A model generated the notes under the pieces. It saw nothing but the letters and a program-made list of their open reading frames with translations, ran no database searches and was not told the origin of the DNA. The translations under genes and the position numbers were made by a program. 32,000 bases of DNA from an uncultured Chloroflexia bacterium (GTDB lineage: Bacteria; Chloroflexota; Ktedonobacteria; Ktedonobacterales; JADMIN01): contig CAVRAI010000003.1 in NCBI GenBank assembly GCA_963718915.1, positions 60,001-92,000 of the forward strand, read 5' to 3'. This document shows positions 6,703-22,888 of the stretch, in pieces. Position 1 is the first letter of the stretch. Each line of letters opens with the position of its first letter.

Positions 6703-8086
6703 CCCACTGAGCCTCTCCACGGCGGCCCTTTCTCTACAATGGGGAAGGGTCGCTTTTCATCTTTCTTCGGCCAGGAGACCTCTGCCTTTCAGGCATGGGG
6801 AGGAATGGCCGTCTCCTTTCGTGCTACTCGTGCTACGCGCGTGGCGTTTTCACACACTATGCGTTATATTGTGAACATGAGACAGAAACGCGCTTACCGT
6901 TATCGCTGCTATCCAACCGCCACGCAAGCCGCCGTGCTGGCGCGGACGTTCGGGTGCGCGCGCTATGTCTACAACTGGGCTTTGCGGGTGCGCACGGATG
7001 CCTACTATGAACGTCAGGAACGGGTGAGCTACGCCGATACCTCCGCTGCGCTGACCACGCTCAAGCAGCAGCCCGCTACCACCTGGCTCAATGAGGTGTC
7101 CAGTGTGCCGACACAGCAGGCATTGCGCCATCTGGATACGGCTTTTCGTAACTTCTTTGAAGGCAGAGCCAAGTACCCGCACTTCCATAAGAAGCGCGGC
7201 AAACAATCGGCGGAGTACACCACGTCCGCCTTCCGCTGGAATGCCGCGACCCGTACCCTGACCCTCGCCAAGATGACGACACCGCTGCACATTCACTGGT
7301 CGCGGCCCCTGCCTGCCCTGCCCGATGGCGCACAGCCCACCACGGTCACGATCAGCCGTGATACGGCTGGGCGCTACTTCGTGAGCATCCTGCTTGAAGA
7401 GGAGATTGCTCTCCTGCCTGAAACGAGCGGACAGGTGGGCATTGACCTTGGATTGCATGATATGGTCGTGCTGGATAGTGGCGAGAAGGTCGGCAACCCC
7501 CGCTTCTTTCAGGCGGATGAAAGGAAGCTGGCGAAAGCGCAGCGGCGTCTCGCCAAGAAACAGCGCGGTTCCAAGAATCGCGACAAGGCCCGCCGCAAGG
7601 TCGCCCGCATCCATGCCCGGATTGCCGACCGTCGCCGTGATTTCACCCACAAGCTCTCGACCCGCATCATTCGTGAGAACCAAACGATTTGCGTAGAGAG
7701 TCTGCGGGTGAAGGCGATGGGCAAGCATCCAACGCTGGCGCAAGCGATTCACGATGTCGGCTGGGGCGAGTTCGTCCGCGAGTTGGAGTACAAGGCCACC
7801 TGGTATGGACGCACCCTCGTCAGAATTGACAAGTGGTATCCCAGTTCCAAACGCTGCCATGCCTGCGGCCATGTGCTCGACTCCTTGACGCTCGCCATTC
7901 GCCACTGGACATGCCCGGAATGTGGCAGTGTCCATGACCGCGACGTAAACGCCGCACAGAACATTTTGGCCGCTGGGCTAGCGGTCTCAGCCTGTGGAGA
8001 AGCTGTAAGACCGGGACGGGTTCGCCCAACCACGGCAGGCTTCCGTGAAGCAGGAATCCCCCGGCTTTAGCCGTGGGGAGTGTCAA
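6703..8086 (+). mobile_element. IS200/IS605-family (IS1341-type, TnpB-only) element; the left boundary is approximate
   Basis: tnpB has no tnpA. The left-end region carries nested hairpins (aggagac 6773-6779 / gtctcct 6811-6817 enclosing tgcct-ttc-aggca 6783-6795). The right end has hairpin cccccggc-ttta-gccgtgggg (8058-8078) and ends ...gagtgTCAA at 8083-8086, like the TCAA right terminus of IS608. An abrupt switch to AT-rich DNA follows. Confidence 0.55.
6877..8070 (+). CDS. tnpB: RNA-guided endonuclease TnpB (IS200/IS605 OrfB)
   Basis: Track ORF 6739..8070. The family-typical start is MRQKRAYRYRCYPT at 6877. The RuvC triad context is intact (VGIDLGLHD, ICVESL, HDRDVNAAQNI), as is the zinc finger CHACGH...CPECGSVH. 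Confidence 0.9.
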   Translation: MRQKRAYRYRCYPTATQAAVLARTFGCARYVYNWALRVRTDAYYERQERVSYADTSAALTTLKQQPATTWLNEVSSVPTQQALRHLDTAFRNFFEGRAKYPHFHKKRGKQSAEYTTSAFRWNAATRTLTLAKMTTPLHIHWSRPLPALPDGAQPTTVTISRDTAGRYFVSILLEEEIALLPETSGQVGIDLGLHDMVVLDSGEKVGNPRFFQADERKLAKAQRRLAKKQRGSKNRDKARRKVARIHARIADRRRDFTHKLSTRIIRENQTICVESLRVKAMGKHPTLAQAIHDVGWGEFVRELEYKATWYGRTLVRIDKWYPSSKRCHACGHVLDSLTLAIRHWTCPECGSVHDRDVNAAQNILAAGLAVSACGEAVRPGRVRPTTAGFREAGIPRL

Positions 8087-12557: not shown

Positions 12558-13094
12558 CTAACTCTCCTCTTCAGGGCCATCCGAATCATTAGCTGGGGCA
12601 TCATCGCCACGGAACGCATTGGCGGCGTCGCTGCCAAGCAGGTCTGCCCCGCTGAGCGAGCCACGTGGCGCGGGCCGGTCGGCGTTATCGGGGGCGCCGC
12701 TACCGGGCCAAAGGGGGCGCGAAGGGCCAGCCGGGCGCAGGGAGAACCCACCGCTGTCCTGTTCGTCTGATGGGACATCGTCGGTTCCATCGGGCGCCGG
12801 GTGTTGCGCCGAGGACTGCTGCGCCATATCACTGCTCTTTTGAACCGTATCCAGCGCCGTGAGTGTCCAGGCAATGCCGGTATCGGCGTTGCGCACCGTG
12901 CGCGAGAGCACGCCAAGCTCCTGCGCGAATGCCGCGACCGCGCGTTCCTGCTGATTCAGTTCCTCGCCAATTTGCAGCAGCAGATGCCACACCTCGACCA
13001 GTTCCACCGGGAGCTCGTCGCCCGTTGCAAGCGCCCGACCGTTCGCGCCGTTCGCGCCGTTCGCGCCATTGTGCTCCGCTCGGCCGACTCTCAT
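12558..13094 (-). CDS. C-terminal fragment of the disrupted membrane/coiled-coil protein (acidic, Pro/Asp-rich tail)
   Basis: The translation ...AEHNGANGANGANGRALATGDELPVELVEVWHLLLQIGEELNQQERAVAAFAQELGVLSRTV... has protein-like composition. Over the same DNA, the frame of the upstream ORF gives Arg/Gly junk (QWRERRERRERSGACNGRRAPGG...). Confidence 0.6.
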   Translation of the reverse strand: MRVGRAEHNGANGANGANGRALATGDELPVELVEVWHLLLQIGEELNQQERAVAAFAQELGVLSRTVRNADTGIAWTLTALDTVQKSSDMAQQSSAQHPAPDGTDDVPSDEQDSGGFSLRPAGPSRPLWPGSGAPDNADRPAPRGSLSGADLLGSDAANAFRGDDAPANDSDGPEEES

Positions 13095-14628
13095 CGGCGG
13101 ACTGGCTGGAGTCCATCGTGGGCAGGGGCATGGTCAGCGGCGCGATATTGGCCTCGGCGGGCGTGGCGGGCGCAAGCGTCTCAAATTCATGCGTCAGACC
13201 TGGCTCGACGCCGATGCCCAGCCCCTTGAGCGCGGGATCGCCGCCTTCGTGTGGGTCCGCCGTCTGGGTAATCTGTGGTGGCAGCACCACGGCCATCATG
13301 CGCCGGGCTTTCCCCAGCAACTCCAGCTCCTTCTGCAGCGACGCCTGCAACGACTCCGCGCGCGAGATCAGCGCGCCAGCCTGTCGCCGCGCCGCGACGA
13401 ACTCGTCCGATGCGTTGGTCAGACCATCGCGGCTATGGGCAACGCCCGCCGAGACACGCCCAAGCTGTTCTTGCAGGCGCGCAAGGCGGCGGTTGTAGTT
13501 GTCGGCGATGCGGGTGACCATCACCGAGACATTGTCGAACGGCGTATCGGTCTTGATGGTATGTACCGGAGTAATCGTATCGTTCACATTCAGCCGATTC
13601 AGGCCTTCGGTGATCGGCAACACCGCGCCGGTCATTCGGGCGTTTTCCTGCTGCACCTGCACCATCGAGTCGAAGGTATCGAGCAGCAGATTCAGGCTGT
13701 TCTCCACCACCTCCAGATCGCCGGGCGCCACTGGTACGCGCACGGTATAGTCGCCGGTAATCGCCTGCGCAATCGCCACCTGAATGCCGCCGATGCTGCC
13801 GTCGAGCTGCTCCTGACGCTCGCGCTCATGCGTCTTCATCTGCTGGAACTGCGCCTGCCGAAATTCGAGATCCTGCGCGTGCTGGGCAGTGACCGCCGTC
13901 GCGTAGATGAAATGCGAGAGCAGCCACGAGAGGATGGCCGTCAGCGCCAGCGGACTGAGGGTATAGAGCACGACCACATAGATCTGCGGCCCCGAGACAT
14001 CGTTGTTGAAGGCGATCAACAGCAGCATCGCCCCGGTCAGCGCAAGCGACGCCCCCACGACGATCACCGTCACCTCGGGAGTCAGCAGCAGGCCGGATTC
14101 AAGCATGACCGCCAGGAAGAAGAGCGCAATGTGGCCCGTGGCCTCGGCGCTGCCCGTAAACATGGCGGCGAAGACCTGAGCGGTGATGGCAAACCCGCCG
14201 CCGAAGACCAACATATAAGCGGCGAAGTGATCGTTCTTCAGCACATTGCCAACGACCAGCGCGGCCAGATAGACCGCCAGCGAGCCGAGCATAATCGGGA
14301 AGATAAGGCCGGGTTTATCATGGTAACCAAACGAGACGGCCGCTGTGATGAGCAGTTGCACGATGATGAGCGTATTGATGAGCTTATGGCGCTGCTCCTC
14401 GCGCTCGTCCATCACATTGATCGTCTGGTCGATCACCGCCGAGAGCGCCAGACGCGGCTCCGCTGGAACCGCTTCCTCGCGGATTGGCCGGGTCAATTTG
14501 GGGTTCTCGCGCGGCGTGAATGCGCCGTTCTCTGCTCCTTCAGCGGCCATCCGGTTATCTGGCGATGAATTACTCCGGCGCAACCATTGTGGTGTCCGGC
14601 GCGAAGGCCTGGGTTCCTTGTTCATCAT
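12829..14628 (-). CDS. Polytopic membrane protein with HAMP-like linker and coiled-coil region; the last ~85 codons of the ORF look like out-of-frame read-through
   Basis: Track ORF 12829..14676; the start is uncertain (ATG 14628 used). About six hydrophobic helices (LINTLIIVQLLITAAVSF ... LALTAILSWLLSHFIY). Then QVAIAQAITGDYTVRVPVAPGDLEVVENSLNLLLDTF (HAMP-like) and heptad-rich RLARLQEQLGRVS...LQASLQKELELLGKA. Sensible sequence ends near ...MDSSQSADES (about 13085). Confidence 0.65.
   Translation of the reverse strand: MMNKEPRPSRRTPQWLRRSNSSPDNRMAAEGAENGAFTPRENPKLTRPIREEAVPAEPRLALSAVIDQTINVMDEREEQRHKLINTLIIVQLLITAAVSFGYHDKPGLIFPIMLGSLAVYLAALVVGNVLKNDHFAAYMLVFGGGFAITAQVFAAMFTGSAEATGHIALFFLAVMLESGLLLTPEVTVIVVGASLALTGAMLLLIAFNNDVSGPQIYVVVLYTLSPLALTAILSWLLSHFIYATAVTAQHAQDLEFRQAQFQQMKTHERERQEQLDGSIGGIQVAIAQAITGDYTVRVPVAPGDLEVVENSLNLLLDTFDSMVQVQQENARMTGAVLPITEGLNRLNVNDTITPVHTIKTDTPFDNVSVMVTRIADNYNRRLARLQEQLGRVSAGVAHSRDGLTNASDEFVAARRQAGALISRAESLQASLQKELELLGKARRMMAVVLPPQITQTADPHEGGDPALKGLGIGVEPGLTHEFETLAPATPAEANIAPLTMPLPTMDSSQSADESRPSGAQWRERRERRERSGACNGRRAPGGTGRGVASAAANWRGTESAGTRGRGIRAGAWRALAHGAQRRYRHCLDTHGAGYGSKEQ
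13041..13067. repeat. Perfect 3 x 9-bp tandem repeat (gttcgcgcc) encoding (NGA)3 on the minus strand
   Basis: gttcgcgcc occurs at 13041-13049, 13050-13058 and 13059-13067. The repeat lies about 10-25 nt from the inferred frameshift site. Confidence 0.9.
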
Positions 14629-14969
14629 ATCGTATGCCGTTTCTATCGCGCTTCTCGCGCGCACGCGAAAGCACACCCACCCACCTCATCCCCAGAAGAC
14701 TGAGGTGGCGCATTGTCTGAAACAGTCTCTGGCGCGTCGATCTGGAAAGGCTATCGTATCGTCGCTAGCCTCTGCCATCCCACGCCTAAAAAAACCAGAC
14801 GGGCGGCATCCAGCCAGCAAGCGCCATCAGGCACTGTATTTTAGGCGAGCGCGCGGTATCTGGCAAGGGGCAATAGGGCAGAAGTCGTGCCAGCCCGCAT
14901 CGCGCCCACAACACAAGAAATAGCGCCGACTGGTACTTGTGTCAGGGGGTATCGCCCTGGCAGGGCGCC

Positions 14970-15005
14970 CGGCTCCTCGCCCAGCTCCTCGCTCGGCTCC
15001 TGGCT
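14970..15005. repeat. Three imperfect 12-bp direct repeats upstream of the nuo-like operon promoter
   Basis: cggctcctcgcc (14970-81), cagctcctcgct (14982-93) and cggctcctggct (14994-15005). The array ends about 50 bp upstream of the -10 element at 15057. Confidence 0.5.
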
Positions 15006-15053
15006 GGCGGATGAACCGAACGGTGTGTGCGGGTGGGCAGGGCGCGGTGGTTC

Positions 15054-15062
15054 TGTTATAAT
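15054..15062 (+). promoter_or_regulatory. Candidate extended -10 promoter (TGtTATAAT) for the nuo-like operon
   Basis: tgttataat at 15054-15062 is a perfect TATAAT with an upstream TG in GC-rich non-coding DNA, about 170 nt before the nuoB-like ATG (15232). Confidence 0.4.
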
Positions 15063-15231
15063 GAACTTTGGGCTACCGTGCGCCCCGCGTTACAGCGCCC
15101 GCACGGCTCCGCCACAGATACACATGCTCATTCAACACCGTCGGCGCGCAATGTCCCCCTGGCGCGTAGCAGTTGCCCGGCCAGGCGCATGAACACGAAG
15201 ACGCGCCGGTGCAGAAGGGATTGCCTTCATC

Positions 15232-15831
15232 ATGAGTACAGATAATGCCAATCGCCCCGCGTCGGGCAGTGGTGTCCCGCGTGGTATCACCGTCCAGATG
15301 CTGGACCAGAGCACCAAACGGCGCACCGGCGAGTATGTTCCCGGCAGCCAGGAGGGGCAGGTGGCGCTGACCAGCGTCGCCGATATGCTCAAATGGGCGC
15401 AGAACTACGCGCGCAGTCGCTCGATCTGGCCGCTGGGCTACGGCCTGGCCTGCTGCGCCATCGAGATGATGGCCGCCGCGCAGAGCCACTACGACCTCTC
15501 GCGCTGGGGATCCGAGGTTTTCCGCTCCAGCCCGCGCCAGGCCGACCTGATGATCGTCGCGGGCACCGTCTGCATCAAGATGGGGCCGCGCCTCGTCCGC
15601 CTGTGGGAGCAGATGCCTGATCCCAAGTGGGTGCTCTCGCTCGGCCAGTGCGCCACGTCTGGCGGCGAGTTCTATGATAGCTATTACACTGTGCAGGGCG
15701 TGGATACGCTCGTGCCGGTCGATATCTACGTGCCAGGCTGCCCGCCCCGACCAGAGGCGCTGATCGAGGGCATTCTCAAGTTGCGCGAGAAGATTGAGAA
15801 GCAGGGTCTGAAGATTCGCGGCGAAGACTAA
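15232..15831 (+). CDS. nuoB: NADH:quinone oxidoreductase subunit B (NuoB/PSST, cluster N2 carrier)
   Basis: [20 protein letters not shown] (tandem Cys), [27 protein letters not shown] and [25 protein letters not shown] are all four N2-ligand contexts in canonical order. Confidence 0.9.
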
Positions 15832-15845
15832 ATAAGGAGCAAACG

Positions 15846-16532
15846 ATGCGCGGAATACTTCAGGGTCTGGGCCTGACCTTGAGCCACGTGACCCGGCCCA
15901 AGGTCACCCGGCTGTATCCCTACGAGAAGCGCAAGCTGCCGCCGCGCAGTCGCGGCCTGATCCAGCTGATCCAGGAGGATGGGCAGGCAACGCCGTTCAA
16001 TCTGAAGTGTGAGGCGTGCCTGCTCTGTGAGAAGGCCTGTCCGCCACGCGCCATCACCATCGAGGCGCGGCCCACGTTGCGCTTCCGCCGCCGACCCTAC
16101 TTCTCGCCGACATCGGTGGCCGGCTATTACACGCCGCGCATCTCCGAGTACGCTGTCAACTATCCTAACCGGCCGTTCTCGCCGCCCGTGCTGACGCCCG
16201 TCACCACCGAACTGGAGCAGCCAGCGGATCTTGCCAGGGCCGACGAAATTCTCGACCGCGCGCCCTTCGACGCCTGGGATCTGACGGCGCTGCTCGACGA
16301 GCTGATGGACGCCTATGACGGGATGCCGCAGGCTGTGGCGTGGCGTGTGGTGGAGCGACGCGGCGTCGATATGAGCGATATCTTCGGCATTGTGACCGCC
16401 AGCGAGCGCTTCAAGCCTGCCGCCGCCGCCACACCAGGTGTGCTACGCACCGACGGAGCCGAACGCGGCCCCTCGGCGGCGACGCGCGGCAAGTATGGCA
16501 GCATCAACCATCGGAGGGCGCAGCGTGCCTGA
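15846..16532 (+). CDS. NuoI N-terminal half (single CxxCxxCxxxCP motif) fused to a Cys-less region weakly resembling the NuoE N-terminus
   Basis: TRLYPYEKRKLPPRSRGLIQLIQEDG...KCEACLLCEKACPPRAITIEA parallels E. coli NuoI ...[49 protein letters not shown]. The second ferredoxin motif is absent. The later segment LTALLDELMDAYDGMPQAVAWRVVERRGVDMSDIFGIVTASERF is NuoE-like but lacks the 2Fe-2S cysteines. The tail is low complexity. Confidence 0.7.
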   Translation: MRGILQGLGLTLSHVTRPKVTRLYPYEKRKLPPRSRGLIQLIQEDGQATPFNLKCEACLLCEKACPPRAITIEARPTLRFRRRPYFSPTSVAGYYTPRISEYAVNYPNRPFSPPVLTPVTTELEQPADLARADEILDRAPFDAWDLTALLDELMDAYDGMPQAVAWRVVERRGVDMSDIFGIVTASERFKPAAAATPGVLRTDGAERGPSAATRGKYGSINHRRAQRA

Positions 16533-17838
16533 GACGCAATCGTATTTGCTGACAACATCCGGCCCGGCGCTGACGAGCTTTGACGCCTACGCGCAGCAGG
16601 GCGGATTCACCGGACTTCGCCAGGCGCTGACGAATATGACGCCAGCGCAGGTACTGGGCGAGTTGCGTACCGCTGGCCTGCGCGGACGCGGCGGCGCTGG
16701 CGTGCTGACGGCGGAGAAGCTCAAGCTGGTGGCTCAGGCGGTGGCCGACGAGAAATATCTTGTCTGCAACGCCTACGATGCCGATATGCGATCTGCGGCG
16801 GCGAGCAGCCTGCTGGAACGCAACCCCTTCCTCGTCATCGAGGGCGTCGCGCTGGCCGCCTATGCCATCGGCGCCACCGAGGCCTACCTCTACGTCCGCA
16901 GCAGCCGCACCGCCGCCGCCGAGAGTATTCGCGCGGCGCTCACCAGCGCCCAGGAGCGCAATGCGCTGGGGCGGGGCATCTTTGGCTCGCAGACCGACCT
17001 GAATATCACGCTGGTCGGGGTCGAGCGCGGCTTCATGGCAGGCGAGGAATCGTCCCTGCTCGAAATCATCAAGGGTCGCCCGATGAAGGCGCAGCAGCGT
17101 CCGCCGTATCCGACCGAGTACGGGTTGCAGGGCCAGCCCACCGTCGTGCAGAACGTCGAGACGCTGGCGAATCTGCCGGTGATTGTAGCGCGCGGCGGCG
17201 ACGCCTTCCGTAAGCTGGGCACCGAGGGCAGCCCTGGCACGAAGCTGCTGACGGTTATCTGGCCAGGCTCGCCACAGGGGGTCATCGTCGAAGCTCCCTT
17301 TGGCACGAAGATTCGCGATGTGCTGGCGAAGGCTGGCGCGCCGGTCAATGAGAGCACGACACGCGCGGTGGTCGTCGGCGGCGGCGAGGGTGGCGCATTG
17401 CCGCTCAGCCTGCTGGATACGCCCTACGACTATGAGCCACTGGAAGAGGTCGGCGTCATCGTCGGCTCTAGCATCATCGAGTTGCTCCCCGCGGACACCT
17501 GCATGGTGCGCTGGGCCACTGAGCGCTCGAACACGCTGGCCCGCGAGTCCTGTGGCAAGTGCGTGCCGTGTCGGGTGGGCGTCAAGCGCATCGGCGGCAC
17601 GCTCGAAGGCATCATCAGCAGCCTGGGCACGCAAGACGATCTGGCGCTGCTGACCGAGTTCGCGCAGTATGTGCCCGATGGCTCGCTCTGTGGTTTCGGC
17701 GTCAACGCCGTTAAGCCGCTGACGACGGCGATGAAATACTTCGCCGACGACTTCACCGCTCATCTCGATGGCACATGCCCGACTGGCGTCTGCGAGCCGG
17801 TGCGCGCGCATCGCTACGCGACCAAGCATGTGCTTTAG
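16525..17838 (+). CDS. NuoF-like (51-kDa family) subunit with retained N3 [4Fe-4S] motif but divergent FMN/NADH-binding motifs
   Basis: Track ORF 16438..17838. I prefer the GTG at 16525 (GGAGGG at 16513-18, overlapping the upstream stop as GTGCCTGA); the alternative is ATG 16495. Motifs: GLRGRGGAG, YLVCNA, IEGVALAAYAIGA, AGEESSLLEII, PPYPTEYGL.GQPTVVQNVETLANLP, GTKLLTV, ESCGKCVPCRVG...SLCGFG. Confidence 0.85.
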   Translation: MPETQSYLLTTSGPALTSFDAYAQQGGFTGLRQALTNMTPAQVLGELRTAGLRGRGGAGVLTAEKLKLVAQAVADEKYLVCNAYDADMRSAAASSLLERNPFLVIEGVALAAYAIGATEAYLYVRSSRTAAAESIRAALTSAQERNALGRGIFGSQTDLNITLVGVERGFMAGEESSLLEIIKGRPMKAQQRPPYPTEYGLQGQPTVVQNVETLANLPVIVARGGDAFRKLGTEGSPGTKLLTVIWPGSPQGVIVEAPFGTKIRDVLAKAGAPVNESTTRAVVVGGGEGGALPLSLLDTPYDYEPLEEVGVIVGSSIIELLPADTCMVRWATERSNTLARESCGKCVPCRVGVKRIGGTLEGIISSLGTQDDLALLTEFAQYVPDGSLCGFGVNAVKPLTTAMKYFADDFTAHLDGTCPTGVCEPVRAHRYATKHVL

Positions 17839-17870
17839 GCATCTTGAGGCAATCTGGGAAGAGGCATTCT

Positions 17871-20276
17871 ATGGCAGTCACGATTCGTGAAGATTCCGCC
17901 GCAACGCCAGGCGGGCAGCCGTTCGAACGGAACGACCATGGCCAGCCATCCTTCACGCTGACCATCGATGGCCGCCCGATGCGCGCCTACGAGGGGCAGA
18001 CTATTCTCAGCGTTGCGGTGGATAACGGGATTCTCGATATTCCGAATCTCTGTAACGATGAGAAACTGGAACCCACCTCGGCCTGCCGCATGTGTCTGGT
18101 GGAGATCGAAGGAGCGGAACGCCCGCTGCCCTCGTGCAATACACCCGCCGCGCCGGGGATGGTGGTGCGCACGAAGTCGGACCGGCTACAGAACATCCGC
18201 CGCACCAACCTGGAGATGATGCTCTCCGACCACAACGCCTATTGCCAGCCACCGTGTCAGGTCGGCTGCCCGACGCATATCGATATTCCGGGCTACCTGG
18301 AACTGATCGCGCAGGGGCAGAATCGCGAGGCGGCGCGGCTGGTGAAGGAAGTGTTGCCCTTCCCCTACATCCTCGGCCTGACCTGTCCGGCGCCCTGCCA
18401 GGATGTCTGCCGCCGCGGGCTGGTGGACGAGGAGATCGCCATCTGCCGCATGCATGGCTATGCCGCCGAACAGTGCATGGACGACCCGCCAACGCCGTGG
18501 GTACAGGAAGCCACCACCGGCAAGAAGGTCGCCGTCGTCGGCGCGGGGCCGTGTGGGCTGACCGCCGCCTACTATCTGGCGCTCAAGGGCCACTACTGCA
18601 AGGTCTATGACATGATGCCCCAGTCGGGCGGCATGCTGCGCTATGGCATCCCGGAGTATCGGCTGGAGAAGGATCAGATTGATCGTGAGTTCGAGGGCGT
18701 CTGGAAGCTCGGCGTCGACGTGCAGTACAACGTCAAGCTGGGCGAAGACTTCACGATTGACGATCTCTTCAACGAGGGCTTCGACGCGGTCTACCTCGCC
18801 ATCGGCGCGTGGACCTCGAACGAGTTGGGCCTCGACGGCCAGGATTTGCCCGGCGTCATCAACGCCATCGCGTACTTGCAGGATAAGACGCGCGGCCTGA
18901 CGCAGCCGGTGAACGACACCAAAGAGGTGATCGTGCTGGGCGGCGGCTTCACGACATTCGACTGCACACGCACCTCGCTCCGCCTGGGTGCGAAGGTGCA
19001 CACGGTCTATCGCCGCGGACGTGGTGAGATGACGGCCACCTTCGAGGAGGTCGAGGATGGCGAGAGCGAGGGCACTGACCTGCAACTCTTCGCGTCGGCG
19101 ACGAAGGTGATCCACGACGGCACGAAGGTCACTGGCCTGGAGTTCCAGCGGATGCAACTGGGCGAGCCAGACGCCACGGGCCGCCGCCGCCCGGTGCCGA
19201 TCCCCGGCAGCGAATACCAGATTAGCTGCGATACGGTGATCCCAGCCTACGGGCAGAAGCCCGATAAAGCGGTGCTGCCGGAGAGTAGTGGCGTCATCTG
19301 GACGAAACATCAGACCATCGAGACCGACCCGTACAACTTCATGACGGCGCGCAAGGGCGTCTTCGCGGGCGGCGACGCAGTGATCGGCGCCTCGACGATT
19401 ATCGAGTGCGTGGCGCAGGGCAAGCTGGCCTCCCGTTCGATTGACGCCTATCTGCGTAGCGAGGATATGGCGGTCGTCTCGAAGACCATCGAGGCGGAGG
19501 AGCGCAAGCCGGACCTCTTCGACATCGTGCCCTACAAGCCGGTCGAGCCGAAGGTCAAGATGCCGATGCTGCCCTATGACGAGCGGGATCGCAACTTCCG
19601 GCTGATCGAGATGGGTTACACCCAGGAGCAGGCCGAGCGCGAGGCGGGCCGCTGCTTGCAGTGCGCGTGCCCGGCGGCGGGGCAGTGCGATCTGCAAAAA
19701 TACAGCATCGAGTACAACCTCGAAAACAACCGCTTCCATGATGGCGAGCCAAGCGACTACCACGACTACGAGTTCGATCTGTCGCATAGCTTCATCCTGC
19801 GCGACCCGAACAAGTGCATCAACTGCACCCAGTGCGTGCGCGTCTGCCACGACGTGATCGGCCCGAACTGCTATGGCATGTTTGGCCACGGCTTCGATAC
19901 GATTGTTTCGACGCCGTTCAACGCCTCGCTGCACGAGACGGACTGTGTTTCGTGTGGCGCGTGCGTGCAGGTCTGCCCGACCGGCTCGCTGATGATGGCG
20001 GAGCGCGAGCTGGTGCGCTGGGACTTCGCGCTGGATCGCTGCATCTTCTGCGGCGACTGCGTGGAGGTCTGCCCGCACGGCGCGCTCGGCGAGACGCCCA
20101 ACTTCGAGCTATCGTTCTACAACCGCTTTGGCCGCGATATCTCGATGCCGATGCAGGATGTGGCGCGCGCGCCGTCGTTCCTGGTGCGCCAGCCCGTGCC
20201 GCGCAACGAGGACGAGCGCCCCAATGGACTGAACCCGCTGGTGCGTCCGCTGCCCGCGCGCCAGATTCGCGAATAG
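17871..20276 (+). CDS. Multidomain Fe-S flavoprotein: NuoG/HydA-type N-terminal [2Fe-2S] domain, GltD-type (glutamate synthase small-subunit-like) FAD/NAD(P)H module, NuoG-type 2x[4Fe-4S] region, NuoI C-terminal half
   Basis: Track ORF 17775..20276; the ATG at 17871 follows GGGAAGAGG. Domains in order:
- [2Fe-2S]: LTIDGRPMRAYEGQTILSVA...NLCNDEKLEPTSACRMCLVEIEG...SCNT
- GltD-like: HNAYCQPPCQVGCPTHIDIPGYLELI...LTCPAPCQDVC, VAVVGAGPCGLTAAYYL, GGMLRYGIPEYRLEKD, VFAGGDAV
- 4Fe-4S region: RCLQCACPAAGQCDLQ, CINCTQCVRVC, CVSCGACVQVCPTGSL
- tail: WDFALDRCIFCGDCVEVCPHGALGETPNFELSFY, resembling NuoI [34 protein letters not shown]. Confidence 0.85.
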   Translation: MAVTIREDSAATPGGQPFERNDHGQPSFTLTIDGRPMRAYEGQTILSVAVDNGILDIPNLCNDEKLEPTSACRMCLVEIEGAERPLPSCNTPAAPGMVVRTKSDRLQNIRRTNLEMMLSDHNAYCQPPCQVGCPTHIDIPGYLELIAQGQNREAARLVKEVLPFPYILGLTCPAPCQDVCRRGLVDEEIAICRMHGYAAEQCMDDPPTPWVQEATTGKKVAVVGAGPCGLTAAYYLALKGHYCKVYDMMPQSGGMLRYGIPEYRLEKDQIDREFEGVWKLGVDVQYNVKLGEDFTIDDLFNEGFDAVYLAIGAWTSNELGLDGQDLPGVINAIAYLQDKTRGLTQPVNDTKEVIVLGGGFTTFDCTRTSLRLGAKVHTVYRRGRGEMTATFEEVEDGESEGTDLQLFASATKVIHDGTKVTGLEFQRMQLGEPDATGRRRPVPIPGSEYQISCDTVIPAYGQKPDKAVLPESSGVIWTKHQTIETDPYNFMTARKGVFAGGDAVIGASTIIECVAQGKLASRSIDAYLRSEDMAVVSKTIEAEERKPDLFDIVPYKPVEPKVKMPMLPYDERDRNFRLIEMGYTQEQAEREAGRCLQCACPAAGQCDLQKYSIEYNLENNRFHDGEPSDYHDYEFDLSHSFILRDPNKCINCTQCVRVCHDVIGPNCYGMFGHGFDTIVSTPFNASLHETDCVSCGACVQVCPTGSLMMAERELVRWDFALDRCIFCGDCVEVCPHGALGETPNFELSFYNRFGRDISMPMQDVARAPSFLVRQPVPRNEDERPNGLNPLVRPLPARQIRE

Positions 20277-20307: not shown

Positions 20308-20340
20308 GGGTGATCGGTGGAATGCCGGTCACCTTTTTTG
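20308..20340 (+). terminator. Rho-independent terminator of the nuo-like operon (also left copy of the islet-flanking repeat)
   Basis: gtgatcgg (20310-17) - tggaatg - ccggtcac (20325-32) forms 8 bp with one G.U pair. It is followed by TTTTTT (20334-39), about 30 nt after the stop at 20274-76. Confidence 0.7.
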
Positions 20341-20355
20341 TGCCTTATTGCCACT

Positions 20356-20369: not shown

Positions 20370-20418
20370 TCGCCATGTATACTGATAGCAGGCAAACGTT
20401 CGCGAGATGGAGGGATAC

Positions 20419-21237
20419 ATGAGTCCGTTCGAGGCGATCCGGCACAGCGATGAGGATGGGCAGGAGTTTTGGTCAGCGCGCGAGCTGGCAGTTATTCTTG
20501 ACTACTCCAACTGGCGCAACTTCGTGAAGGTTATAGGCAAGGCGCGTGAAGCCTGCGAGAACAGTGGTTATGCAGCTTCAGACCATTTCGTCGAAGCCGA
20601 CCAAATGGTCACTCTAGGCAGTGGGGCACAACGTCAGGTTGCAGATTTCTCCTTGTCGCGCTACGCCTGTTATCTCATCGTGCAGAATGCCGACCCCGAA
20701 AAACCCATCGTCGCGCTGGGGCAGACCTACTTTGCCGCGCAGACCCGTCAGGCAGAACTGGCCGAAGACGCCGAGCGTGTCTACCTGCGCGATCAGATGA
20801 GCGAGCACAACAAGACGCTGGCCGCCTCAGCATACGAAGCCGGAGTGGTTACTCGAAGCGACTTCGCCATCTTCACCGACCACGGCTATATGGGCCTCTA
20901 CAGTGGTGAGCGAGCACGCGACATCGCCGCACGCAAGGGATTGAAGCGCAGGCAGCCTATCCTCGACTGGATGAACACTGAGGAACTGGCTGATAATCTC
21001 TTCCGGCAGGTGCAGGCCGAGGCACGCATCCGTCGTGAAGGAGCCGCCAGCAAAGAGGAGGCCAACCGCATCCACCATCAGGTCGGACAGCAGGTGCGTC
21101 GCTTTATCATCGAGGAGTTAGAGGGAACGCCGCCGGAATTTCTACCGACGCCGAGCGAGAGCGTGCAGACGGTGCGCGCCCGCGAACAGCAGCGGATCCA
21201 GGCGGAACGACAGCCGTCACTCTTCCCCCACGGATGA
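20419..21237 (+). CDS. dinD: DNA-damage-inducible protein D homologue (DinD; BRO-N-like N-terminal domain)
   Basis: Track ORF 20407..21237; the ATG at 20419 follows GGAGGG (20409-14). SPFEAIRHSDEDGQEFWSARELAVILDYSNWRNFVKVIGKAREACENSGYAASDHFVE...LGSGAQRQVADFSLSRYACYLIVQNADPEKP...GQTYFAAQTR is co-linear with E. coli DinD as I recall it (QPFEEIKH...GQEFWSARELAPLLEY.DWRNF...). Confidence 0.85.
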   Translation: MSPFEAIRHSDEDGQEFWSARELAVILDYSNWRNFVKVIGKAREACENSGYAASDHFVEADQMVTLGSGAQRQVADFSLSRYACYLIVQNADPEKPIVALGQTYFAAQTRQAELAEDAERVYLRDQMSEHNKTLAASAYEAGVVTRSDFAIFTDHGYMGLYSGERARDIAARKGLKRRQPILDWMNTEELADNLFRQVQAEARIRREGAASKEEANRIHHQVGQQVRRFIIEELEGTPPEFLPTPSESVQTVRAREQQRIQAERQPSLFPHG

Positions 21238-21319: not shown

Positions 21320-21946
21320 ATGACAACGAAACCCGAAGAGCTATCTAACGGGGATCGCGCGCGTCATCTCATTCAGGAGGTGGGCGTGCTGCGTCCGCGC
21401 GACCTGGCCGCGCATGGCATCCCTCCACGCTATGCGTCTCGCCTCGCGCGGGAAGGGCTGCTAGAGCGGGCGGATCGCGGCCTCTATGCTGTGACAGATG
21501 GTGCTATCCATGAGCATCAGACGCTGGTTGAGGTGAGCCGACGGATGCCTCACGCCGTGATCTGCTTGCTTTCTGCACTACGCTTCCATGACCTGACAAC
21601 TCAAGCGCCATTCGAGGTGTGGGTAATGGTAGATGTTCACGCCTATGTGCCGCGCACGACACAACTACCAGTGCGTGTCGTTTATGCCTCGGGCAAAGCG
21701 CTTACCGAAGGTGTCGAGCAACATCTCATTATGGGCGTGCTAGTGCGTGTGACCACTCCGGCAAAGACAGTCGTGGACTGCTTCAAATACCGCTCGAAAG
21801 TTGGGCTTGATGTAGCCCTGGAGGCGCTACGTGAGACCTGGCGCGAGCGACGCGCGACGATGGACGAGTTGTGGCGCTACGCCCAAGTCTGTCGTGTCGC
21901 ACAGGTTATGCGCCCGTACCTCGAATCGCTGGAGACGCTCTCATGA
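21320..21946 (+). CDS. abiEi: Type IV toxin-antitoxin system AbiEi-family antitoxin (wHTH transcriptional autoregulator)
   Basis: 208 aa. ARHLIQEVGVLRPRDLAAHGIPPRYASRLAREGLLERADRGLYAV is the AbiEi_4-type N-terminal wHTH. The stop overlaps the next start as ATGA (21943-46). Confidence 0.8.
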   Translation: MTTKPEELSNGDRARHLIQEVGVLRPRDLAAHGIPPRYASRLAREGLLERADRGLYAVTDGAIHEHQTLVEVSRRMPHAVICLLSALRFHDLTTQAPFEVWVMVDVHAYVPRTTQLPVRVVYASGKALTEGVEQHLIMGVLVRVTTPAKTVVDCFKYRSKVGLDVALEALRETWRERRATMDELWRYAQVCRVAQVMRPYLESLETLS

Positions 21947-22869
21947 GCGATTCCACTGGTGGCAAAAAACCTCGTGCAATACCAACACCCAGGGATCTGC
22001 CAGCATCCATTCGTGGCAGGCTGAAGAACCAGGCGCGGGCGCGTGGTGAGGACATGCTCTATGTACTATCACGCTATGCGCTCGAGCGATTGCTCTTTCG
22101 CCTCGGACGCTCCTCATATGCTGACCAGTTCGTGGTAAAGGGCGCGCTTCTTTTCTCGCTCTGGAACGAGCACTCCCACCGCCCAACACGTGACCTGGAT
22201 CTGCTCGGCTTTGGTTCTGAGGACGCCAACCGCATCCAGCTGATCTTCACCGATCTGTGCACGCTGCCCATCAGTGAGGCAGATGGTCTGATATTCCAGC
22301 AGGAATCCATACAGGTGACGCCTATTCGCGAGACGCAGGAGTATGGAGGACTGCGCGTAGCAATGTGGGCATTGCTTGGGCAAACTCGCATTCGCGTGCA
22401 GGTGGACATCGGCTTTGGTGATGTCACCACACGTGCGCGTCTATCCGCCTGAGACAGTTGTCGCGGAGAAGTACGAGGCGCTCGTGCGGTTGGGGGTAAT
22501 CAACAGCCGGGTGAAAGACTTTTATGATCTGTGGACATTGGCCAGCGAACGCGCCTTCACTGGCACTATCCTCGCGACGGCGATCAGTGCGACGTTCACC
22601 CGACGTGATACGCCACTCCCGACGGCTACGCCACTCGCGCTCACTGACGACTTCATCGCTGACCCGGCAAAGCTACAACTCTGGCGCGCTTTCGTGAGCC
22701 GCAACAAACTCGATCCTGCTGCGCCTTCTCTCAACTGCTCCGCGCTTTCCTCTTGCCGCCCACACAATCACGGCTCTCTGGAGAACCATTCGATCAGCAA
22801 TGGGCGCCAGGTGGTCCATGGCAACGACCGCCCCTGGCTGCAAGTGATTCCTCCGCCGATGCAAAGTAG
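21943..22869 (+). pseudogene. abiEii: AbiEii/AbiGii-family nucleotidyltransferase toxin, disrupted (internal deletion/frameshift near 22425 and 1-nt deletion near 22725)
   Basis: Frame 1 (21943-22452): MSDSTGG...LERLLFRLGRS.YADQFVVKGALLFSLW...RPTRDLDLLGFG...QVDIGFGDVTT, then junk and a stop. Frame 2 (about 22425-22725): HVRVYPPETVVAEKYEALVRLGVINSRVKDFYDLW...LWRAFVSRNKLDPAAP. Frame 1 again (about 22726-22869): FSQLLRAFLLPPTQSRLSGEPFDQQWAPGGPWQ...*. About 15-20 residues normally between GFGD and the (R)xYPxET segment are missing. Confidence 0.75.
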
Positions 22870-22888
22870 GCAGACTCATATGTGACGA

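Follow-up and report, generated by a model that had tools for sequence, protein, structure and literature searches.

How does a cluster of complex I-like genes come to carry the ferredoxin subunit NuoI in two pieces, on two polypeptides, and what enzyme would such a cluster encode? Few enzymes have been studied as much as complex I, and its 14 core subunits and its wire of seven clusters are regarded as fixed. The question is raised by a 32,000-nt stretch of DNA from an uncultured member of the Ktedonobacterales (Chloroflexota; contig CAVRAI010000003.1, positions 60,001 to 92,000; hereafter the window), in which four co-directional genes of the forward strand occupy positions 15232–20276 in the order nuoB, gene 2, a nuoF-like gene 3 and gene 4. 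An earlier note on this DNA had proposed that NuoI is split here, with its N-terminal half on gene 2 and its C-terminal half at the end of gene 4, and profile alignments bear this out: the two segments match complementary ranges of the NuoI profile TIGR01971 (positions 1–71 and 78–111), as parts of the same NuoI family and not as unrelated ferredoxins. We consider it likely that the four genes encode the flavin and iron-sulfur (Fe-S) arm of a Chloroflexota variant of complex I, in which the input cassette lies inside nuoI and the two NuoI halves are reassembled.

Gene 2 (15846–16532) encodes a protein of 228 amino acids (aa) in which the NuoI N-half is fused to a NuoE-type helical domain. Residues 7–82 match TIGR01971 positions 1–71 of 121 (E 1e-12), residues 4–83 match residues 30–105 of solved NDUFS8/TYKY (E 3e-12), and the protein on its own scores 47 bits against TIGR01971, for which the curated cutoff is 113 bits. 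The N-half as delimited here (residues 1–83, 15846–16094) comprises an N-terminal helix, the stretch YPYEK...PPRSRG, corresponding to the NuoI-type YPxE...PxRxRG segment that precedes the first CxxCxxCxxxCP motif, that first cluster motif and the strand AITIE. The only four cysteines of the protein all lie within the motif CEACLLCEKACP (residues 55–66, 16008–16043; motif D), which the earlier note had placed at exactly these coordinates within a NuoI N-terminal segment. Its proposal that gene 2 ends at about 16080 does not hold, as the gene runs to 16532 and carries a NuoE-type helical domain at residues ~110–200. This four-helix domain (NuoE', 16173–16445) was delimited with a predicted model of gene 2 alone, in which it reaches a predicted local distance difference test (pLDDT) score of 85–96 and in which a helix spans residues 2–16. 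Nearly all of the top 45 Foldseek matches of the model are NuoE, HydC, NfnC, StnA or NDUFV2 (best root-mean-square deviation ~1.5 Å, 66 columns), with no match in the PDB at E <= 0.001 (best E 0.015). The thioredoxin-like 2Fe-2S domain of NuoE is absent from gene 2, which has no cysteine outside motif D; distant relatives of gene 2 retain the NuoE 2Fe-2S cysteines. The linker between the NuoI N-half and NuoE' (16095–16172) is Pro- and aromatic-rich and partly conserved (YYTPRISEYAVNYPNRP), and in the Ktedonobacteraceae (P0121) it has an extra insert of 18 residues.

Gene 4 (17871–20276, 801 aa) most likely starts at Met33 of an open reading frame (ORF) that opens at 17775, because orthologue alignments open at ORF residues 25–33. 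Its product runs through a NuoG-type 2Fe-2S domain (N1b-type Cys motif at 18051–18137; PF13510), a GltD-type flavoprotein insert (18240–19418), an all-Cys N5-like motif, three ferredoxin motifs (A, B and C) and a tail of ~65 residues. The insert consists of Fer4_20 (PF14691) and Pyr_redox_2 (PF07992) domains and scores 579 bits against NF009454, below the equivalog cutoff of 916. A VYRR motif can be read after its second GGG Rossmann turn, and because VYRR at this place in GltD and NfnB is what we take to be the mark of 2'-phosphate binding, the GltD site probably uses NADPH. The all-Cys motif CLQCACPAAGQC (19653–19688) is the counterpart of the His-ligated N5/FS4C motif, and the relative at locus L080 has the canonical HxxxCxxCxxxxxC in its place. 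From the N5-like motif through motif B, gene 4 aligns with StnC (8oh5_C, E 4e-26), NfnA (9bov_A, E 2e-24) and HydA (8a6t_A, E 9e-22), and the 32-residue spacer between motif A (CINCTQCVRVC, 19815–19847) and motif B (CVSCGACVQVCP, 19944–19979) is included in the end-to-end alignment with their two-cluster domains, in which motifs A and B bind two [4Fe-4S] clusters. Motifs A and B had been proposed to form a complete two-cluster pair, and their homology to these solved domains agrees with that proposal (HydA/StnC-type domain, 19815–19979); as A and B use each other, the third motif, C (CIFCGDCVEVCP, 20040–20075), is left without a partner in its own chain, which had likewise been anticipated. 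At the point where StnC, NfnA and HydA go on to a molybdopterin-like or H-cluster domain, gene 4 has the NuoI C-half (20007–20273), made up of the strand WDFALD, motif C, PNFELSF and a conserved tail ending in ...PLVRPLPARxIRE, with WDFALDR...ELSFY around motif C spanning 20019–20120. The parallel that had been drawn between this end of gene 4 and the C-terminal half of NuoI finds support in the profile, since the tail alone matches TIGR01971 positions 78–111 (E 8e-10). Gene 4 scores 55 bits against the same profile, and its tail, which contains the second CxxCxxCxxxCP with NuoI-type flanks, is 43% identical to a canonical NuoI C-half.

In a 2x[4Fe-4S] ferredoxin fold, each cluster is ligated by three cysteines of one motif and a single cysteine of its partner motif. 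With three ferredoxin motifs in gene 4 and one in gene 2, parity closes only by pairing motif C with motif D. When gene 2 residues 1–82 and the gene 4 tail are joined in silico, they give a single colinear match to TIGR01971 over positions 1–111, at 96 bits, which is about the sum of the scores of the two halves, while control joins of gene 2 with motif B or with motif A reach 72 and 56 bits, respectively. The joined halves are 34% identical over 125 aa to the canonical NuoI of locus L142, and the agreement goes well beyond chance. Furthermore, the four cysteines and the proline of motifs C and D are invariant across the family, down to 26–30% identity; those of motif C are kept in every split-type locus, and those of motif D are invariant in two separate alignments (A1 and A3), reaching 26% identity. 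Judged by sequence, the joined halves are a divergent NuoI, termed divergent because the join misses the curated 113-bit cutoff. From motif parity, the invariant cysteines and the complementarity of the profile matches, we infer, in line with the inter-subunit complementation suggested in the earlier note, that the two halves would reassemble in trans into one two-cluster fold.

An exhaustive search of representative proteins identified distant relatives of gene 2 (29–45% identity) in which the same NuoI N-half is fused to NuoE. Many of them have a complete 2Fe-2S NuoE domain and one is further fused to NuoF; a 607-aa protein (P0190) joins the N-half and NuoE' to NuoF. In a profile search, a 279-aa form of the fusion of NuoI N-half and NuoE (hereafter IN::E, with IC for the C-half) proved abundant in soil metagenomes; the only labels that annotation pipelines give to this form are NuoE and formate dehydrogenase gamma, and the fusion is elsewhere also called a ferredoxin. 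A further 86 loci (L079–L164), 80 of which came from a metagenome scan, were annotated by BLAST against a reference set. The IN::E fusion was found in 46 loci from outside the Ktedonobacteria, none of which (0/46) contains an unsplit nuoI; nuoH lies directly 5' of it wherever the contig extends, and nuoJ/K directly follow the gene with the NuoI C-half in 13 loci. Where the contig suffices, the split operon reads nuoA-B-C-D-H-[IN::E]-F-[G'::GltD::IC]-J-K-L-M-N, whereas the order in six canonical operons of that scan is D-E-F-G-H-[unsplit I]-J. Because H-[IN::E]-F-[G'::GltD::IC]-J stands where canonical operons have H-[unsplit I]-J, the E-F-G cassette lies inside nuoI. The suggestion that a cassette of E, F and G/GltD was inserted into an ancestral nuoI is thus upheld, for the halves flank the cassette between nuoH and nuoJ, and when the orthologous position is looked up in canonical operons it is found to hold an unsplit nuoI.

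Individual loci illustrate variations on this layout. Locus L079 reads nuoA-B-C-D-H-[IN::E]-F-[2Fe-2S::GltD...::B::C]-J-K-L-M-N, with a frameshifted copy of gene 4, as in some long-read relatives, and locus L080 reads nuoH-[IN::E]-[E::F::GltD]-[NuoG-N::A::B::C]-J-K-L-M-N. The GltD module lies within the NuoG-like subunit in most lineages and is fused to NuoF in L080, and some lineages have two NuoE-like units, the IN::E protein and an E::F or E::F::GltD fusion (L080 2076–5222; L085; L088). One representative protein (P0161) has the N-half and NuoE' joined to a C-terminal segment of NuoH, and probably stems from a frameshift or from a chimera of assembly or gene calling.

Within the Ktedonobacteria, which were scanned at one genome per species, the unit formed by nuoB, IN::E' (gene 2), nuoF and G'::GltD::IC (gene 4) is intact in 77 genomes, its carriers including Ktedonobacter racemifer, Thermosporothrix hazakensis, Ktedonosporobacter rubrisoli, Dictyobacter kobayashii and Ktedonospora formicarum. 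The gene 2 protein is 224–246 aa long across these genomes and has hundreds of relatives of the same length; that of the window is 98% identical to its counterpart in a Ktedonobacterales soil metagenome-assembled genome (MAG). In ~60 complete gene 4 orthologues, the tail FALDRCIFCGDCVEVCPHGALGETPNFELSF and both lone motifs are essentially invariant, and the extreme C-terminus, PLVRPLPARxIRE, is conserved. Clustering of the ORFs flanking the 77 loci left only the four genes as conserved, and since their flanks are not, the four genes behave as a self-contained unit. No other nuo gene and no membrane subunit was found within 7 kb of the cluster in the 77 genomes, and neither nuoH nor nuoJ occurs in the window.

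The remaining subunits can be followed through the closest relatives of the window proteins, which belong to a rarer split-type lineage (L081, L083 and L170) with identities of 68% for NuoB (L081), 57% for gene 4, 44% for gene 2 and 40–46% for NuoF. The operon of L081 and L170 reads A-B-C-D-H-[IN::E']-F-[G'::GltD::IC], with no nuoJ-N within the next ~4–6 kb. In a search with the NuoD of L081, the next matches after its own lineage (60–62%) include Thermogemmatispora, Thermosporothrix, Ktedonospora, Tengunoibacter and Ktedonobacteraceae MAGs. A syntenic nuoA-nuoC-(small membrane ORF)-nuoD-nuoH locus is present in Ktedonospora, Thermosporothrix and Thermogemmatispora. It lacks a nuoB between A and C, no further nuo gene lies within 10 kb of it, and in Ktedonospora formicarum ~2 Mb of the same contig separate it from the four-gene cluster. 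Most simply, this can be read as a break-up of the ancestral operon in which nuoB moved to the head of the cassette, leaving all flavin and Fe-S subunits (B, split I, E', F and G'/GltD) in one operon and A, C, D and H in another. Because the Ktedonobacteria hold a separate nuoA-C-D-H locus without nuoB, the window cluster is best interpreted as the whole flavin/Fe-S arm of a variant complex I with fragmented genes, and not as a free-standing flavoprotein docked on NuoB. The ORF between nuoC and nuoD (L165 9404–9790; L167 9583–9903; L168 9409–9732) has a basic N-terminus, a predicted membrane segment and no Pfam match, and sits roughly where nuoB would be expected nearby. Downstream of the eight-gene operons there is a rubrerythrin gene, as the second ORF after the operon in L170 (16861–17744) and several genes on in L081, the downstream region of which (14330–18414) also has a 2-oxoacid:ferredoxin oxidoreductase cluster; rubrerythrin has also been reported at the end of mbx-like operons (Degli Esposti, 2015; PMC4758237).

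The two genes that flank gene 2 have diverged to different degrees. Gene 1 (15232–15831) encodes a 199-aa NuoB (PF01058; NCBIfam NuoB 229 bits, cutoff 116) in which the N2 ligands C74 and C75 (tandem CC), C140 and C170 are all present and the N-terminal helix region is kept. Gene 3 (16495–17838, of uncertain start within an ORF from 16438) overlaps gene 2 in a different frame and contains only the Complex1_51K and NADH_4Fe-4S domains, the latter with the N3 4Fe-4S region, without the extra ferredoxin domains of HydB/StnB-type subunits. It scores 302 bits against TIGR01959, below the cutoff of 559, and the motifs of its flavin mononucleotide (FMN)/NADH site have diverged strongly, as they have in its close relatives, with GAGVLTAEKL and NAYDADMRSAAAS in place of the canonical GAGFPTGxKW and NADEgEPGTFKD. 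These diverged site motifs, RGRGGAGVLTAEKL and NAYDADMRSAAAS, stand beside a retained N3 Cys motif; in the NuoF of L080 the FMN/NADH-site motifs are canonical. Among the Ktedonobacteria, NuoB is 70–97% conserved as against 45–67% for NuoF, which is also far below gene 4. The NuoF site may be decaying in this lineage, with GltD as the true entry point; the divergence of the NuoF site motifs and the loss of the NuoE cluster domain hint at GltD as the working site of electron entry in the window lineage, which is put forward here as speculation. All NuoF proteins of split type (window 17740–17838, L055, L064, L079, L081 and L083) have a conserved C-terminal CPxGxCxP...R segment, which is absent from the canonical NuoF of L078 and at which the fused GltD begins in L080.

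The arrangement suggests how the arm might work. The input cassette, consisting of NuoE, NuoF and a NuoG-N-like subunit with its GltD insert, sits within nuoI, and its position makes the NuoI N-half the N-terminus of a NuoE-like protein (gene 2) and the C-half the C-terminus of the NuoG/GltD protein (gene 4). The N-half would supply the membrane-proximal helix, YPxEK..PxRxRG and the first CxxCxxCxxxCP, and the C-half the strand, the second CxxCxxCxxxCP and PNFELSF, so that the two could form one 2x[4Fe-4S] fold with N6a- and N6b-type clusters ligated across the interface between gene 2 and gene 4. Electrons might enter at the flavin adenine dinucleotide (FAD) of GltD, at NuoF or at both, pass through the clusters of gene 4 to N6a/N6b and on to N2 in NuoB (gene 1), and from N2 would reach quinone in the NuoD/NuoH pocket, encoded in the Ktedonobacteria at the separate nuoA-C-D-H locus. 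Sequence motifs for the N2, N3, N1b-type, N5-type and A/B clusters are present, as is the GltD module. A broader proposal, which we hold tentatively and give slightly less than an even chance, is that a large and as yet undescribed Chloroflexota clade of complex I has its N-module transposed into nuoI, N6a and N6b each ligated by two chains and a GltD-type NADPH site, and that the Ktedonobacteria have seen the decay of the NuoF site and of the NuoE cluster and the scattering of the genes, with all Fe-S subunits in one operon, so that the enzyme would be a proton-pumping NADPH:quinone oxidoreductase or, in reverse, an NADP+ reductase driven by the proton-motive force.

Several observations weigh against the arm with a reassembled NuoI. 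The joined NuoI stays, at 96 bits, below its curated cutoff of 113, and the reassembly in trans is something that we infer from motifs and profiles. The NuoI half of the gene 2 model, folded alone, has a pLDDT below 50, which would be compatible with an absent partner and equally so with a shallow alignment, and is suggestive without deciding between them. NADPH specificity has the VYRR motif as its single basis. The genes nuoJ-N were not located in the Ktedonobacteria, no dedicated genome search having been made; a second nuoB or nuoI may exist elsewhere in these genomes; and the genomes in which the nuoA-C-D-H locus was observed are those of related genera and not that of the window. Lastly, Pfam and NCBIfam profiles also align motif B with motif C as one dicluster domain of NuoI-like spacing. 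This last point leads to the chief structural alternative, a different assignment of the motifs in which B and C form an ordinary in-chain dicluster ferredoxin, A binds one cluster, like N4 in NuoG, the gene 2 motif pairs with A or holds a single cluster, and no NuoI is reconstituted. In its favour, a single domain match to Fer4_7 and to the NuoI profiles covers both B and C (gene 4 ORF residues 720–784), PDB chains of NuoI align to B plus C, and the gap between B and C is ferredoxin-like, at 21 residues, in every lineage; the inter-motif gap of canonical NuoI is 34. Yet motifs A and B, spacer included, match StnC, NfnA and HydA end to end, so that B is fully used, and a B–C pair leaves both A and D unpaired even though the four cysteines and the proline of D are invariant. 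The join of D with C is also the best of the three against NuoI, ahead of D with B and D with A, and the halves sit at both ends of the cassette, in the position of nuoI. In view of the homology of A and B to solved pairs, the invariance of D and the superior D–C join, the in-chain pairing of B with C was rejected and appears very improbable.

A weightier alternative is that the four genes of the Ktedonobacteria are what is left of the variant complex I and now encode an independent soluble enzyme of the Stn/Nfn kind, an NAD(P)H oxidoreductase or transhydrogenase whose reassembled NuoI and NuoB would do no more than conduct electrons out to ferredoxin or to some other soluble acceptor. The lack of any membrane subunit within 7 kb in the 77 genomes speaks for it, as do the best solved matches of gene 4, which are StnC and NfnA of soluble bifurcating enzymes, and the nearest outgroup operons, L081 and L170, which are likewise without nuoJ-N nearby. 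Related genomes, however, retain a nuoA-C-D-H locus in which precisely nuoB is missing and the NuoD is closest to split-type operons; NuoB, with its N2 ligands and N-terminal helix region intact, is far better conserved than NuoF; and NuoF is without the additional ferredoxin domains found in bifurcating HydB/StnB-type subunits. The high conservation of NuoB and the NuoI-type N-terminal helix of gene 2 fit a membrane complex better than a free diaphorase. A purely soluble enzyme was rejected because of the nuoB-less nuoA-C-D-H locus, the conservation of NuoB and the plain NuoF, and we regard it as unlikely, if clearly less so than the in-chain pairing of motifs B and C. That the split might be an artifact, arising from chimeric assembly, from a frameshift or from the decay of a pseudogene, could be suspected from the overlap of genes 2 and 3 in different frames and from the frameshifted gene 4 of some long-read relatives, such as L079. 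The same boundaries and lengths recur, however, in 77 genomes, cultured isolates among them, and on dozens of independent metagenome contigs, with near-invariant tails; a chimera or pseudogene can be excluded on these grounds, and an artifactual origin of any kind has a negligible probability.

Read as the arm of a variant complex I, the cluster can be set against several known systems. NuoI/Nqo9/NDUFS8 (TYKY; clusters N6a and N6b) has the same N-terminal segment, two CxxCxxCxxxCP motifs, a strand before the second motif and [PD]xFE[LM] after it, and the relatives of the window cluster share its operon position between nuoH and nuoJ. It is a single chain, however, whereas here the two halves lie on two polypeptides, fused to NuoE and to NuoG/GltD, and each half, like their join, misses the curated NuoI cutoff. 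With canonical nuoA-N operons, the relatives share the customary order of A, B, C, D, H, J, K, L, M and N, and NuoB, NuoF and the NuoG N-terminal domain are recognizable. The differences are that E-F-G lies within nuoI and not between nuoD and nuoH, that the molybdopterin-like part of canonical NuoG is absent and that a GltD module is present, as an insert in NuoG or, in some lineages, as a fusion to NuoF. Furthermore, the single canonical operon is replaced in the Ktedonobacteria by separate A-C-D-H and B-IN::E'-F-G' loci, with a NuoE that lacks its 2Fe-2S domain.

Gene 4 follows the architecture of StnC/NfnA (StnABC/NfnABC, Bfu-type transhydrogenases that contain NuoEF; PDB 8oh5, 9bov and 9n5u) as far as motif B, and its partners are likewise NuoE- and NuoF-like, but the molybdopterin-like C-terminal domain of StnC/NfnA is replaced by the NuoI C-half. 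Those enzymes have a NuoF-like subunit with extra ferredoxin domains and a NuoE with a 2Fe-2S domain, both absent here, and unlike them the present family is genetically embedded in nuo operons, beside NuoB. In Thermotoga and some proteobacteria, mbx-like operons have a gltD-related flavoprotein in place of NuoI (Degli Esposti, 2015; PMC4758237). They too set a GltD-type NAD(P)H flavoprotein on a complex I-like Q/P module at the position of NuoI, but there NuoI is substituted, whereas here it is kept, split around the E-F-G/GltD cassette in a true nuo operon. HoxFUYH and NiFe-HydABCSL (PDB 7t2r) similarly join a diaphorase module to a NuoB-family Fe-S subunit through a NuoG-like wire from NuoEF, but they have a [NiFe] large subunit and no NuoI, while here NuoI provides the link and the partner is NuoD/NuoH. 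All the parts of the cluster belong to known families (NuoB, NuoI, NuoE, NuoF, NuoG-N and GltD). What is new is the splitting of nuoI by the input cassette, the missing molybdopterin-like part of NuoG, the GltD insert in a true nuo operon and the fragmented Ktedonobacteria operon with its relocated nuoB; the literature on split NuoI, NuoI-NuoE fusions, GltD in nuo operons and Ktedonobacteria complex I was not found to describe the arrangement.

The surroundings of the cluster in the window can be described briefly. A weak promoter-like site on the forward strand (TGGGCA-17-TATAAT with an upstream TG, consensus scan) lies at 15034–15062, ~170 nt 5' of nuoB, and a hairpin followed by a T-run, a weak terminator-like match to consensus on the same strand, lies at 20316–20343, 40 nt 3' of the gene 4 stop. 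Upstream of nuoB and divergent from it, a 615-aa ORF of the reverse strand (12829–14676) has a multi-span membrane region, a coiled C-terminal part and no Pfam match, and is not kept beside the cluster in most relatives. A Bro-N domain gene (20407–21237) directly follows the cluster, and is succeeded by an AbiEi antitoxin gene and an AbiEii toxin in two overlapping ORFs (21871–22452 and 22376–22885; region 21320–22885), the toxin being likely frameshifted. Farther upstream, an IS605-family OrfB/TnpB gene with a Cas12f-like TNB domain (6739–8070) adjoins a methylmalonyl-CoA mutase gene.

The split-nuoI arrangement is widespread in the Chloroflexota. Many Chloroflexi have been described as having 13 of the 14 complex I subunits and lacking NuoG (Spero, 2015; PMC4453560), and the arrangement explains why many Chloroflexota are scored as being without NuoG or without complex I, the IN::E fusion being mislabelled by annotation pipelines. 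If the two halves do reassemble, the TYKY/NuoI ferredoxin fold would be made from two chains, as a rare case of a split metallo-domain, and the position of the cassette would provide a direct handle on the recruitment of the N-module to the 11-subunit ancestor. The variant may use NADPH, and an NADP+ reductase driven by the proton-motive force, if that is what the Ktedonobacteria enzyme is, would be useful to scavengers of H2 and carbon monoxide. Some hosts, among them Thermosporothrix, Ktedonobacter and Thermogemmatispora, are in culture, which opens the arrangement to study in the laboratory.

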